Shown: piece by piece, positions 3,875 to 7,681 of the stretch
How positions within the stretch are numbered: the stretch's first letter is position 1
Layout: each line of letters begins with the position of its first letter
Virus genome (UHGV): UHGV-0351843
Strand: one strand, 5' to 3'
Length of the DNA: 32,013 nt
DNA from: a virus
Notes under the pieces: generated by a model
What the model saw: only the letters and a program-made list of their open reading frames with translations
Told to the model about the DNA's origin: nothing
Database searches by the model: none
Made by a program: the position numbers and the translations under genes

Positions 3875-4297
3875 GTGGCAAAAGTTTTTACACAAGAAGA
3901 GCGGGAAAAAATTAAAGGGCAGGTTGTTGAACTCGTACGCCAGAGTGGGCGCGAGACGTTAAGACAACTGGAAACTAAAACTGGGGCAACAAAATATCTG
4001 ATGAACGTTCTGGCCAGAGAGCTGGTTGCCAGTGGCGATGTATACAACTCTGGTTACGGGTTATTCCCGTCTGAACAGGCGCGTAAGGACTGGCAAAATG
4101 CCCGTAAAAAGCTCTCAAGGGCAAAGCTGAAGAAACCATCTGCGGTTGATCCGGACCTTATCTGGTCATTACCTGATGGAGAAATACGTCGTTACGACAG
4201 GCGTCATAATATGATTTGTACTGAGTGTCGTAAAAGCGAAGTTATGCAGCGCATATTGTCGTTTTATCAGGGGGATGTTCGGTATTTATTGAAGTGA
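3875..4297 (+). CDS. hypothetical protein (GTG start) in the position of the second replication gene
   Basis: 140-aa ORF with AGGAGG 5 nt upstream of GTG. No recognisable DnaC/P/DnaB signature was seen by eye. Confidence 0.5.
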   Translation: MAKVFTQEEREKIKGQVVELVRQSGRETLRQLETKTGATKYLMNVLARELVASGDVYNSGYGLFPSEQARKDWQNARKKLSRAKLKKPSAVDPDLIWSLPDGEIRRYDRRHNMICTECRKSEVMQRILSFYQGDVRYLLK

Positions 4298-4559: not shown

Positions 4560-5951
4560 TTATGCTTCATGTTGCTTTTTGAGATCGCTTCTAGCATAGC
4601 TCCACTCAATAATGTTGTCGGGTCGTTGCTGATCGAAAAGGATACGGGATTCAATACCATTACCTAAAAAGCTGGTATTCCCATCTACGTAAGAAGCTAT
4701 CCCTTGTGAACCAACACGAAGAATATTTTCTAATGGCTGCTTTGTTCTTGCTGCATCGCTAAGGAGATATAAACCCGGGTACGTTTTGTTAGCACGGTGA
4801 AAAAAAAGTTCATTGTCAAAACACATGACGATGATTATTTGTCCCGACATGAGATCGGAGAGCATTTCAGTTGGCAGATGCAAACTCATAAATGGTCGAG
4901 ACAAAGGGTCAAAGAATGAATCATTTATATTCACAACAGGGCTTTTTATACCGAGACTATCCATCCATCCATTGAAGGCAACAAAGCCCATTTCAGAATC
5001 ACGGTACATACCTAAGAACAAACATTCATCAATAGTATCAATTGCCCAATTTTTTCCTCCGCGAATAATCTCCCACATTTTAACTAAGCGGTGGGTATAA
5101 AATTCAGACGGATGATCTATCTCATTGATTTTAACTTTAGACTGATGAAAGTTGTCAAAGCCCTCGCCAGTATTAATCGCCTCCAGAACATTCATGCCAC
5201 GAATGATTTGCCTTTTTATGCGATTAAATTGCTTAACATCATTATCAGGCATATTGTTAATGAAGTTTTCTTCAAAGTGCGGACATTCTGAGATAACAGA
5301 AAATTCAGCAGCTTCATAAAGCTCATTATTCTTTTCACCTGTTTTAACTTCCACGAGCTGGAAGCCATCCAGTAGATTAAAGGTGACTAAATCTCCCACA
5401 TGAACAAATGTGCTCATGTCAGAGACAATCGCTACGGAGTGTTTGTCCTGGTTGATAAGATCGGCTGCGACCATAGAATCAATTATGTTATCTTCTGATA
5501 GATTGTCATTGCTTGCATTAATAGGTAAACGCCGCAAACTAGAGTGTTCTTCATCAAGAATGCTCCAAATTATTGAGTCAATACAACGGCGAAGAATAAG
5601 AATTTCAAATTTTTTTAAACTTATTTCATCAATACACTTTTCTTTATTTTCTTTATCCTTGTTTCGATGGTGCTCTTTTTTTTCAGTTTCCAATCTTTTT
5701 ATATCTCTCAGCCGAATAATAATCTCAAAAGATATGATTTTTTGTGAGTCTTTCCAATTTTTGAGACAGGTTTCATACTCTGCAAGAAAATCCTCATCAT
5801 TGGAAGGTAGTTCTTGAATTGGATTCCCTCCCCTTATCATTTTGGCAAGTGCATGCATTAAAGATACATAATGAGGTGATAAAATTGTCCAAAACTTCCT
5901 AAACGGTTTGTACTTTTCAAGAAAAGTTGACTCATCAGTATAATTCATCAT
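4560..5951 (-). CDS. hypothetical protein, candidate defence effector with a possible PD-(D/E)xK-like motif
   Basis: 463-aa minus-strand ORF (track 4560..5957 begins at TTG; ATG at 5949-5951 with GAGG upstream) in an AT-rich island. The central segment HVGDLVTFNLLDGFQLVEVKTGEK fits a D...(E)xK nuclease-type motif. It lies directly downstream of the AbiH-like gene on the same strand. Confidence 0.7.
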   Translation of the reverse strand: MMNYTDESTFLEKYKPFRKFWTILSPHYVSLMHALAKMIRGGNPIQELPSNDEDFLAEYETCLKNWKDSQKIISFEIIIRLRDIKRLETEKKEHHRNKDKENKEKCIDEISLKKFEILILRRCIDSIIWSILDEEHSSLRRLPINASNDNLSEDNIIDSMVAADLINQDKHSVAIVSDMSTFVHVGDLVTFNLLDGFQLVEVKTGEKNNELYEAAEFSVISECPHFEENFINNMPDNDVKQFNRIKRQIIRGMNVLEAINTGEGFDNFHQSKVKINEIDHPSEFYTHRLVKMWEIIRGGKNWAIDTIDECLFLGMYRDSEMGFVAFNGWMDSLGIKSPVVNINDSFFDPLSRPFMSLHLPTEMLSDLMSGQIIIVMCFDNELFFHRANKTYPGLYLLSDAARTKQPLENILRVGSQGIASYVDGNTSFLGNGIESRILFDQQRPDNIIEWSYARSDLKKQHEA

Positions 5952-6040
5952 AACCAAACCTCATTCCTCTTATCTATTTTCCTCAAGGTATAAAATACCA
6001 GCCTTTTTTACATAATTATAGTTATAATATGAAGTCTCAT

Positions 6041-6910
6041 TCAGATATCTTCATACTGTACGTAAGAAATATTTGAGCCTCTGATACCATAATCTTCTAA
6101 ACTGCCTGATTTTTTCTCACCTCTATATAAAGCAACTATCCATCGAGCATTTTCTTGGATGCTTTTATTTATTTCAGTAAAGTATTCACCGTCAACTTCG
6201 GCGAGCGAGTGGCCTAAAACGATGACCTCGTCCACATTTTTAAGCGATGAGAAAAAAACGTTTTCTTCTTTAATTATGTCTTCGCTGGGCTTGAATGTAT
6301 TACCGAAGTATTCGTTTATTCTGTCGTATGCCTCTGCTATTCTTGTATCTTGATCCGGTCCTATATATGGATTTAGTGACTTTTCCACCCTAAAACTATG
6401 ACCAAGTATGAGATCGTCATCGTAACTACAATTGCCGTGAATATGTATGATTTGCTCGTCTGGAACGGCATAGATCTGCTGCAAGGTATTTGTATAATTA
6501 AATGAAAAATAGATGCTTTCTCTTGGTATGGGCGGGATGTATTGCTTAGGATTGTAAGCATCGGCTATGTTAATCCCTTTAACCCAATCAGCGAATTGCT
6601 CCTTCAAACGAGCTGACAGCATTTGTGTGATTTTATTTACTTCATATTGGTAATCGTGATGATAAGCATCGCTCCAATCATCGGTATTGTATGAAGCCAA
6701 AAATATCTCACTGTTTTGAAGGATAAGCTCATAATCAATTTCACCTAAAGCATTTTCTAACTCATTCCACTCGTCCCCAGCAGGAATGTATTCTTCTATC
6801 GCGTCATATAGATCTTGGTCATTTTTTTCTACATACGACTTAAAGTGCTTGTATCCTGTTGGTAAGCCATGACGCATGTCAAATCCATTTCCTATTATGT
6901 AAAGCCTCAT
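6041..6910 (-). CDS. AbiH-like abortive-infection family protein
   Basis: ORF 6041..6961; the likely start is Met18 at 6908-6910 with AAGGGA upstream. The N-terminus MRLYIIGNGFDMRHGLPTGYKHF matches my recollection of the conserved N-terminal motif of the AbiH family; this needs HMM confirmation. AT-rich codon usage unlike the flanking phage genes. Confidence 0.65.
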   Translation of the reverse strand: MRLYIIGNGFDMRHGLPTGYKHFKSYVEKNDQDLYDAIEEYIPAGDEWNELENALGEIDYELILQNSEIFLASYNTDDWSDAYHHDYQYEVNKITQMLSARLKEQFADWVKGINIADAYNPKQYIPPIPRESIYFSFNYTNTLQQIYAVPDEQIIHIHGNCSYDDDLILGHSFRVEKSLNPYIGPDQDTRIAEAYDRINEYFGNTFKPSEDIIKEENVFFSSLKNVDEVIVLGHSLAEVDGEYFTEINKSIQENARWIVALYRGEKKSGSLEDYGIRGSNISYVQYEDI

Positions 6911-7224
6911 TGTTTTTCCCTTAGTCGAATTGTATAAAAATACTAACATGGCCTGCTCCACGTTGACTACTATCCCCTCCTTTGAGTAATGCCTTCATCA
7001 GATGTAACAACATTTGCGAGCTTCCACAGTTCGCTCAAAGCGGACTAGAAGGTTAGCTTGCGTCGGACTTGGCGTATTTAAAGAAGTGCTGGTGGAGACT
7101 GGTTGTTGTGTTCCATTTCTACAGAACAAAATCACAGAAACTATACCCAATAGTTATATTGAATCAATGATGAGACAGCCTCATATTTATCAGGACTGGT
7201 GTACGTCCAATACAGGAGGTTGTC

Positions 7225-7314
7225 GTGCTGGTTCTCAAATGTGCGCTAGCTATTGCGGCTGTAATGGCAATTTATTGTCTTGCTGTTGTTCTTACGGATC
7301 GCCTTTCTGATTGA
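7225..7314 (+). CDS. candidate small hydrophobic peptide (29 aa)
   Basis: AGGAGG followed 5 nt later by GTG. The translation VLVLKCALAIAAVMAIYCLAVVLTDRLSD is a single predicted TM helix with a short charged tail. It overlaps the 98-aa track ORF 7014..7310 in another frame. Confidence 0.3.
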   Translation: MLVLKCALAIAAVMAIYCLAVVLTDRLSD

Positions 7315-7525
7315 TTTTATATTGGCGAGGTGACGTGAGTTAAGTAGAATTGCTGCGGGTGCTTGAGGCTATCTGCCTCAGGCATGAACACCAAAGGCAG
7401 ATAGAGAAAAGCCCCAGTTAACATTACGCGTCCTGCAAGACGCTTAACATTAATCTGAGGCCAATTTCATGCTAGACACATGTAGGTTAGCCTCTTACGT
7501 GCCGAAAGGCAAGGAGAAGCAGGCT

Positions 7526-7681
7526 ATGAAGCAGCAAAAGGCGATGTTAATCGCCCTGATCGTCATCTGTTTAACCGTCATAGTGACGGCACTGGTAACG
7601 AGGAAAGACCTCTGCGAGGTACGAATCCGAACCGGCCAGACGGAGGTCGCTGTCTTCACAGCTTACGAACCTGAGGAGTAA
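7526..7681 (+). CDS. hok: Hok/Gef-family type I toxin
   Basis: 51-aa product MKQQKAMLIALIVICLTVIVTALVTRKDLCEVRIRTGQTEVAVFTAYEPEE with AAGGAG upstream. It has the Hok family signature (N-terminal TM helix plus the CEVR motif) and matches my recollection of HokD/RelF-type chromosomal Hok proteins. An in-frame upstream ATG at 7469 could give a Mok-like extension. Confidence 0.85.
   Translation: MKQQKAMLIALIVICLTVIVTALVTRKDLCEVRIRTGQTEVAVFTAYEPEE

Follow-up and report, generated by a model that had tools for sequence, protein, structure and literature searches.

A conserved 29-codon reading frame beside hok/sok in lambdoid prophages very probably encodes a small membrane peptide

Introduction

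The inner membrane of Escherichia coli contains very small subunits and modulators, among them KdpF and PmrR (29 amino acids (aa) each), MgtS (31 aa), CydX (37 aa) and AcrZ (49 aa). Our study concerns a 29-codon open reading frame (ORF), here called ORF29, at positions 7225-7314 on the plus strand of the virus genome UHGV-0351843, a stretch of 32,013 nucleotides (nt) referred to below as the window. ORF29 resembles these five proteins in its length, in its one hydrophobic helix with few flanking polar residues, in its strong Shine-Dalgarno sequence (SD), in having been missed by annotation pipelines and in bearing the marks of selection at the amino-acid level; it differs from them in sharing no sequence similarity with any, in being prophage-borne and confined to Escherichia and Shigella, and in being absent from K-12. 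Comparison of its homologues indicates that ORF29 is, with high probability, a genuine gene that has mostly escaped annotation and that codes for a very small membrane peptide.

A second group of small membrane peptides lies equally close at hand. Type I toxin systems combine a small hydrophobic transmembrane peptide with C-terminal cationic residues, an antisense RNA antitoxin and cis elements that sequester the SD of the toxin mRNA (PMC8309996). An earlier note on this DNA, made from its letters alone, had proposed that ORF29 might be either an unannotated small membrane peptide or a second type I toxin near the hok locus. ORF29 shares with the toxins of this class (Hok/Gef, PF01848; TisB, ZorO, DinQ, ShoB, Ibs and Ldr) a length below 60 aa, a hydrophobic composition and a predicted transmembrane helix, and it stands beside hok/sok; it differs from them in having no RNA antitoxin candidate, no SD-sequestering leader, no cationic C-terminus, no Pfam match and no similarity to HokD.

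Two further comparisons come from the phages themselves. DicB, the lysis protein YdfD, the YnfT/YnaM family, lambda Kil and CIII are, like ORF29, the products of accessory genes of fewer than 70 aa in early or nin regions, and several of them act on host envelope or division proteins; ORF29 is not homologous to any of these, and its place is in the nin region, where it borders a cargo and defence slot on the right, and not in the dicB or kil operons. A 27-aa ORF beginning M-x-WPEAF, present in phage 933W and in one locus of our comparison set (L104), also lies directly upstream of hok, belongs to the same size class and encodes a single hydrophobic helix; it has no detectable similarity to ORF29, its start overlaps the preceding stop (ATGA) and it has no promoter of its own.

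Results

ORF29 and its translation signals

The hexamer AGGAGG occupies plus-strand positions 7214-7219 of the window and is followed by the spacer TTGTC (7220-7224) and by a GTG start codon (7225-7227), which opens a frame of 29 codons that closes with TGA at 7312-7314; reading out the sequence bears out the earlier description of an SD 5 nt before this start. The product, VLVLKCALAIAAVMAIYCLAVVLTDRLSD, is 29 aa long with its first residue read as formylmethionine (fMet), and has a grand average of hydropathy of 1.72 on the Kyte-Doolittle scale. The best 19-residue stretch, residues 6-24, averages 2.56 and residues 1-23 average 2.57, a hydrophobic stretch long enough by this measure to span a bilayer. 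It is followed in the window by the C-terminal tail TDRLSD, and the family form of this tail, (M/T)DRLSD, has a net charge of -1 when the terminal carboxylate is left out of the count. The hydrophobic helix with a short tail that had been described from the letters is upheld by these values.

The window contains 6 combinations of AGGAGG, a start codon and an ORF of at least 29 aa, as against 0.94 in mononucleotide shuffles. An SD and a 29-codon ORF are by themselves weak evidence for a gene, and it is the comparative evidence across homologues that takes ORF29 beyond chance.

Selection on the reading frame

We compared the window with 98 loci drawn from E. coli chromosomes, phages, IMG/VR prophage contigs, E. 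albertii, E. ruysiae, a Shigella chromosome and the Shigella virulence plasmids (pINV), giving 99 copies that represent 42 distinct haplotypes of positions 7160-7360. The 29-codon frame, its start and its stop are intact in all 42 haplotypes; most copies begin with GTG, and pINV and the loci L006 and L104 begin with ATG. Fitch parsimony on a neighbour-joining tree assigns 27, 17 and 46 base changes to the first, second and third codon positions of ORF29. Read in this frame, the changes comprise 45 synonymous and 41 non-synonymous substitutions and none that involves a stop codon; the corresponding counts in the remaining two frames are 21, 47 and 17, and 18, 66 and 1. Random re-placement of the same base changes yields an expectation of 27.0 ± 4.2 synonymous changes (approximate P ~5e-5), while the lack of stop-involving changes is not significant when taken alone (P = 0.42).

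The ratio of non-synonymous to synonymous divergence (dN/dS), estimated by the Nei-Gojobori method, is 0.20 between the window and pINV, 0.19 between the window and L007, 0.21 for L106 and 0.24 for L104, and falls to 0.10-0.11 for pINV-L007 and L007-L104. Most well-diverged pairs among these five thus lie between 0.10 and 0.24 at dS values of 0.5-2.2; synonymous divergence is saturated for pINV-L104, which hence gives no estimate. Closer pairs, and pairs that include L006, have values of 0.33-1.07 derived from few changes. With synonymous divergence near saturation, the peptide remains conserved at 19 of 29 positions between the window and L106 and at 13 of 26 between the window and L104.

The pattern of insertions and deletions has the same character. 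The two that fall within ORF29, a loss of 3 nt in L006 and a gain of 3 nt in L106, are both multiples of three, and those of 1-2 nt occur only outside it, just upstream and downstream. An SD is retained in every variant and, despite diverged leaders, in every lineage, in the forms AGGAGG, AGGAGA, GGGAGG, TGGAGA or GGAGGG; in L104 the leader and the N-terminus of the peptide differ (MSDDISLAMEGALAVVAVVGVYCLVVFLMDRLGN) and the SD is nonetheless kept. The most conserved part of the peptide is its C-terminal half and tail, IYCL-x-VVLM-D/E-R/H-L-S-D, which is found even in the divergent members P0051, P0053, P0054 and P0057, and the replacements in the N-terminal half are conservative swaps among hydrophobic residues.

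From these comparisons we conclude that the 29-codon ORF is under purifying selection as a protein, with the caveat that recombination makes the parsimony events non-independent. It is the reading frame, and not just the DNA, that is conserved among relatives, and the pattern at synonymous sites, which the earlier note had named as a possible ground for rejecting the ORF, is consistent with coding.

Putative promoter and transcription signals

A putative sigma-70 promoter precedes ORF29 on the plus strand at 7159-7187, with the hexamers TTGAAT (7159-7164) and CATATT (7182-7187) separated by 17 nt and a predicted transcription start near 7194. The -10 hexamer is the same in all upstream haplotypes with a single exception (TATATT in L006), and the -35 is TTGAAT, TTGAAG or TTGAGT in most of them, the homology breaking at this point in a few lineages. 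In several lineages the 17-nt spacer is almost wholly replaced, and the retention of the hexamers while the spacer diverges suggests a functional promoter for ORF29; the putative promoter is not among the matches of a stricter consensus scan. In L106 and L104, ORF29 closely follows genes on the same strand. A scan of the sequence between the ORF29 stop and the hok promoter found no terminator-like site. The promoter and ORF29 are bracketed by a 13-nt imperfect inverted repeat (85%; ATATTGAATCAAT at 7156-7168 and ATTGATTTTATAT at 7310-7322), which is AT-rich and may be due to chance.

Distribution and annotation

At a coverage threshold of at least 80%, 1895 of 5426 complete E. coli genomes carry the segment that holds the SD and ORF29 (7205-7320), in up to three copies each. 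Several widely used laboratory strains are carriers of ORF29 (E. coli B/BL21, ATCC 25922, E. coli W and S. flexneri M90T), and it is found in addition in E. albertii, E. ruysiae and, upstream of icsP, Shigella pINV. Among deposited phage genomes it is confined to four: Tritos, Evi, mEp460_ev081 and HannyBb. A scan with a degenerate DNA pattern over one genome per species matched only Escherichia and Shigella, together with three contigs from metagenome-assembled genomes (MAGs) that are 93-97% identical to the window across ~490-550 nt and that we take to be mis-binned E. coli.

The annotation of this DNA is almost empty. ORF29 is called in none of 60 evenly sampled rows and in one of 60 in an earlier sample; the lone case, WP_000960667.1 (‘hypothetical protein’, strain ET826), represents 650 contigs in the protein collection. 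Variants elsewhere bear the names ‘membrane protein’ or ‘conserved hypothetical protein’, including those in the GenBank entries of REL606 and BL21(DE3). The search for homologous proteins used an ORF29 query lengthened to 40 aa by the in-frame sequence before it. An exhaustive hidden Markov model (HMM) search of 1.84 billion representatives returned 17 proteins, all of the ORF29 family, and among these 17 matches none links ORF29 to a known toxin family. A preprint on the Pas small RNA and the Pro-SMP paper were considered and found to be unrelated to ORF29.

The window is 100% identical, over the stretch tested, to many E. coli chromosomes, and in NZ_CP025892 it lies within a lambdoid prophage of the Qin type. 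The genes of this prophage run from dicB through ydfA, repressor- and cro-like genes, YdaT, a replication gene and DUF977 to a hypothetical gene and AbiH, both on the minus strand, and then through the intergenic region with ORF29 to hokD, ydfU and Q; RefSeq annotates nothing between AbiH and hokD. The retention of frame, start, SD and stop, the coding signature and this blank in RefSeq agree with the part of the earlier proposal that spoke of an unannotated small membrane peptide. K-12 is without ORF29: in its Qin prophage no more than 15 nt ahead of the hokD ATG are homologous to the window, and relBE fills the rest. Since relBE stands where ORF29 would be, small-protein screens in K-12 could not have found it. 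In MG1655 (locus L107, 2620-3373) the hok promoter, leader, sok and the start of mok are all replaced by relBE, which is consistent with hokD being an orphan there.

Proximity to hok/sok

Downstream of ORF29 on the plus strand, as neighbours and not as parts of the gene, lie a promoter-like site for hok (TTGGCG-17-TAGAAT, 7322-7350), found by promoter scan 8 nt after the ORF29 stop, and the hok/sok locus (7357-7681), which comprises the leader and sok (7357-7531), mok (7469-7681) and the hokD coding sequence (7526-7681). The Rfam sok match at 7357-7531 scores 119.9 bits, starts ~43 nt after the ORF29 stop and, as a match to sok and the hok leader, sets the 5' end of the hok mRNA at about 7357. 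The earlier note had placed ORF29 about 200 bp upstream of the hok locus; this holds for the hok start codon at 7526, which is 211 nt past the ORF29 stop, and does not hold for the locus as a whole, which ORF29 abuts, because the promoter-like site and the sok match follow so closely.

This arrangement is nearly constant. A Hok ORF starts 210-212 nt past the ORF29 stop (246 nt in L104 and L105) in 87 of the 93 loci that could be assessed, and two more, L076 and L090, have a mutated hok, so that a hok locus is present in 89 of 93. Of these two, one has lost the hok stop codon and is extended and the other is frameshifted or truncated after the transmembrane and Cys region, each beside an intact ORF29, which is hok decay next to ORF29. 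The most divergent members of the family, P0053 and P0057, are likewise found in a lambdoid nin region, with a HOK_GEF gene shortly after them.

ORF29 is intact without a downstream hok in L007 (where the order is QueH, ORF29, DUF1971), in the Shigella chromosome L099 and in pINV. The pINV copy has an ATG start, keeps AGGAGG, is 76% identical at the amino-acid level and lies 290 nt upstream of icsP/sopA; of hok, it is followed by the promoter and by just ~50 nt from the 5' end of the mRNA. This arrangement means that a lambdoid nin-region fragment forms the icsP upstream region on Shigella virulence plasmids. The copies concerned are at 3902-4187 in pWR100 (L010) and at ~2400-2690 in pCP301 (L011), and 136 plasmid records, mostly from Shigella, have ORF29 at 60-80% amino-acid identity. 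Conversely, most hok-carrying phages, 933W for example, match the window only from 7337 onward and are without ORF29. Judged by these sequences, ORF29 is separable from hok.

No likeness to Hok emerged at the protein level. BLASTP gave no alignment of ORF29 with HokD at E<=100 (a Hok profile for hhalign was not built), and no Pfam family, Hok/Gef (PF01848) included, matched ORF29 at E<=10. The Hok/Gef architecture, which comprises ~50 aa with a periplasmic C-terminal domain that holds the conserved Cys, an overlapping mok frame and a fold-back hok mRNA, is likewise missing from the 29-aa frame, in which we found no C-terminal domain, no overlapping conserved frame and no conserved mRNA structure.

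The cargo slot and neighbouring features

To the left of ORF29, the region from the DUF977 gene to ORF29/hok (4560-7030 in the window) is a cargo hotspot, the contents of which differ between lineages (L002-L009, L012, L101-L106). The window carries AbiH and a 463-aa hypothetical protein in this slot; other lineages carry DUF4145, a restriction endonuclease, DUF2326, QueH, SIR2, a SEC-C-domain protein, Dcm with an NgoMIV-type restriction-modification system, ORF6N or DUF551. In most loci the right border of the slot is sharp, at 7030/7031. In L102 and L103 only the last ORF29 codons remain, followed by the hok promoter or by the neighbouring gene, with mosaic breakpoints inside ORF29.

Between the left edge of homology at 7030/7031 and the ORF29 promoter lies a conserved non-coding block of ~130 nt (7031-7158), which is kept in ~1700 E. 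coli genomes. It contains a small hairpin, GTTCGCTCAAAGCGGAC, at 7029-7045 and also a leftward promoter-like site at 7167-7140, and comparison of homologues found no coding frame in it that survives the indels. Its structure conservation index (SCI) is 0.35-0.40 and the alifold energy of its plus strand was reached by none of 30 column shuffles, which points to a possible weak local structure on that strand.

A second family of tiny hydrophobic ORFs, unrelated to ORF29, lies directly upstream of hok in 933W, L104 and L105. In 933W (L100, ~1396-1479) it reads MTWPEAFANVGTVMAVVLVVYSICRWR, is unannotated and overlaps the L0139 stop with its start as ATGA; in L104 (2434-2517) and L105 (~857-940) it reads MNWPEAFAITGVAMAIAFLVYVICRWG and stands behind AGGAGG. 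In L104 the order is the MNWPEAFAITGVAMAIAFLVYVICRWG ORF, a divergent ORF29 and hok, three small membrane peptides in a row. Searches of Pfam and PHROGs gave no convincing match for this second family.

Discussion

Our analysis leads us to think it probable that ORF29 is a genuine gene of Qin-type and other lambdoid prophages, the product of which would be a single-pass accessory peptide of the inner membrane and not an RNA-controlled, pore-forming toxin. The peptide would be translated from the GTG at 7225, or from ATG in some relatives, behind a strong and conserved SD. Its residues 1 to 23 or 24 would form one transmembrane helix and the last five or six, (M/T)-D/E-R/H-L-S-D, a short polar tail with a net negative charge; the topology that the positive-inside rule predicts (fMet, K5) is bitopic in the inner membrane, with the N-terminus in the cytoplasm and the DRLSD tail in the periplasm. 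In the arrangement seen in the window, transcription would start from the gene's own sigma-70 promoter at 7159-7187, and where same-strand genes precede it, as in L106 and L104, ORF29 would be read through from the phage early-right operon. As no terminator follows ORF29, the transcripts probably run on into hok.

We propose that the peptide binds or modulates another membrane component through the motif IYCLxVVLMDRLSD, in the manner of KdpF, AcrZ, MgtS and PmrR. The conservation pattern fits a sequence-specific interaction in or at the membrane, and would fit generic membrane damage less well. This proposed mode of action is one of analogy only, since neither a known family nor a paper on the peptide was found.

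The alternative that ORF29 is a second type I toxin beside hok/sok, depolarising the membrane and held in check by an antisense or divergently transcribed small RNA (sRNA), draws on the peptide itself, which with its 29 aa, single hydrophobic helix and polar tail is like TisB, ZorO, DinQ, ShoB or Fst-type toxins, and on its surroundings: a bona fide type I locus is directly adjacent, and in L104 ORF29 falls within the run of three small hydrophobic ORFs. Two minus-strand promoter-like sites could also serve an antitoxin. The RNA from the site at 7343-7314 would be antisense to the 3' end of ORF29, but its -35 coincides with the hok promoter region and is lost in L007, L099 and pINV, where ORF29 stays intact, and in many variants its -10 is weakened to TGAAAT; the site at 7167-7140 stands back-to-back with the ORF29 promoter in the geometry of istR/tisB and orz/zor. 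Against this reading, single-sequence folds are no better than those of shuffles on either strand (z of -1.1 and -0.09 for the minimum free energy), and the alifold SCI is 0.43 on the plus strand, where 9 of 30 column shuffles did as well, and 0.10 on the minus strand. Repeat searches, direct and inverted, that took in the upstream block and the Sok target turned up nothing by which an sRNA encoded upstream or downstream could pair with the ORF29 mRNA over more than 13 nt; synonymous variation extends over all of ORF29, leaving no overlapping constrained RNA evident; and Rfam at a permissive threshold returned nothing but sok itself. Searches for an RNA antitoxin by promoter, structure, repeat and Rfam therefore yielded no candidate, although an unstructured, weakly promoted RNA would escape them. 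The leader is short, the SD matches the consensus and no conserved structure sequesters it (plus-strand z of -1.1, SCI of 0.43), whereas the mRNAs of type I toxins sequester their SD, and the tail is net-negative, whereas type I toxins of the membrane generally have a cationic C-terminus (PMC8309996). ORF29 thus shows only one of the four features of the class, the small hydrophobic transmembrane ORF of fewer than 60 aa. The second half of the earlier proposal, a second type I toxin, finds no backing in an antitoxin candidate, in SD sequestration, in Hok homology or in the anionic tail, and on this sequence evidence we regard that identity as disfavoured rather than refuted, and improbable. 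That ORF29 might instead supply a protein component tied to hok/sok, either as a membrane toxin without an antitoxin, set free when the prophage is induced, or as a membrane partner that tunes Hok activity or the timing of lysis, seems to us unlikely, if worth keeping in mind.

The remaining alternatives deny the peptide a role. ORF29 could be a cis-acting leader or upstream ORF of hok, of which the translation or transcription matters while the peptide is functionless, for instance through activation or occlusion of the hok promoter 8 nt further on, or through a hok mRNA extended at its 5' end. The fixed distance to the hok locus in 89 of 93 loci, the lack of a terminator-like site before the hok promoter and the persistence of the synteny in the most divergent members all speak for this; amino-acid-level selection with dN/dS of 0.1-0.25 and conservative replacements would not be expected of a pure leader, ORF29 is still whole in pINV, L007 and L099, in which hok has been deleted or truncated, and hok/sok works without it in 933W/Sp5 (PMC8621323), and we consider a leader role decidedly improbable. 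It is more doubtful still that ORF29 is no gene at all, its DNA being conserved as part of the sequence that controls hok from upstream, or as a boundary at which the cargo hotspot recombines, and its frame open by chance. This would suit AT-rich intergenic DNA beside a promoter, the non-significance of the missing stops, the near-absence of RefSeq calls in the sampled rows (0 of 60 and 1 of 60) and the mosaic breakpoints at or inside ORF29; it does not account for the excess of third-position and synonymous changes, the restriction to in-frame indels, the conserved SD and start, or a peptide still conserved in L106 and L104 with synonymous divergence near saturation. Lastly, an overlapping ORF of 98 aa (7014-7310) is the longest across the region and might on that account be taken for the real gene. 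It has no SD, it is disrupted by deletions of 1 nt, ~15 nt and 6 nt in L009, L003 and L005, its 5' two-thirds are replaced in L002, L006, L007 and L008, and its frame is the one with 18 synonymous, 66 non-synonymous and 1 stop-involving change. The doubt already voiced about this ORF was right: it is refuted as a gene by the frameshifts in its homologues, and there is next to no chance that it is the real one.

Several observations weigh against our preferred interpretation of ORF29 as a gene for a membrane accessory peptide. Changes due to recombination or homoplasy enter the parsimony counts as independent events, which makes the P value approximate, and some close pairs, such as the window and L002, have a dN/dS near 1 on very few changes. 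Transcription, translation and membrane location are predictions from the sequence. Searches of Pfam, NCBIfam and PHROGs gave no meaningful match for ORF29 or its divergent relatives, and a literature search found no paper on the peptide or its accessions. That ORF29 and hok lie together in almost all cases (89 of 93 assessable loci) could point to a functional connection missed by our interpretation. Finally, L102 (O157:H7 Z570, 1501-1545) and L103 (1501-1564) have lost the 5' part of ORF29 through cargo exchange, and this truncation by cargo swaps in some genomes implies that ORF29 is dispensable.

As it stands, ORF29 would be one more uncharacterised small membrane protein and not a new kind of system. 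If it is translated, it is a widespread protein, encoded in 1895 of 5426 complete E. coli genomes as well as on Shigella pINV, that RefSeq annotation has almost entirely failed to see. Its gene holds a fixed place at the right border of a slot in which defence genes (AbiH, SIR2, restriction systems and others) are swapped, directly before hok/sok, and from this position the peptide could bear on prophage maintenance, lysis timing or exclusion. Were it tied to the hok/sok modules, it would be a component of these in about one-third of E. coli genomes, and one recruited by the Shigella virulence plasmid to a position upstream of icsP.

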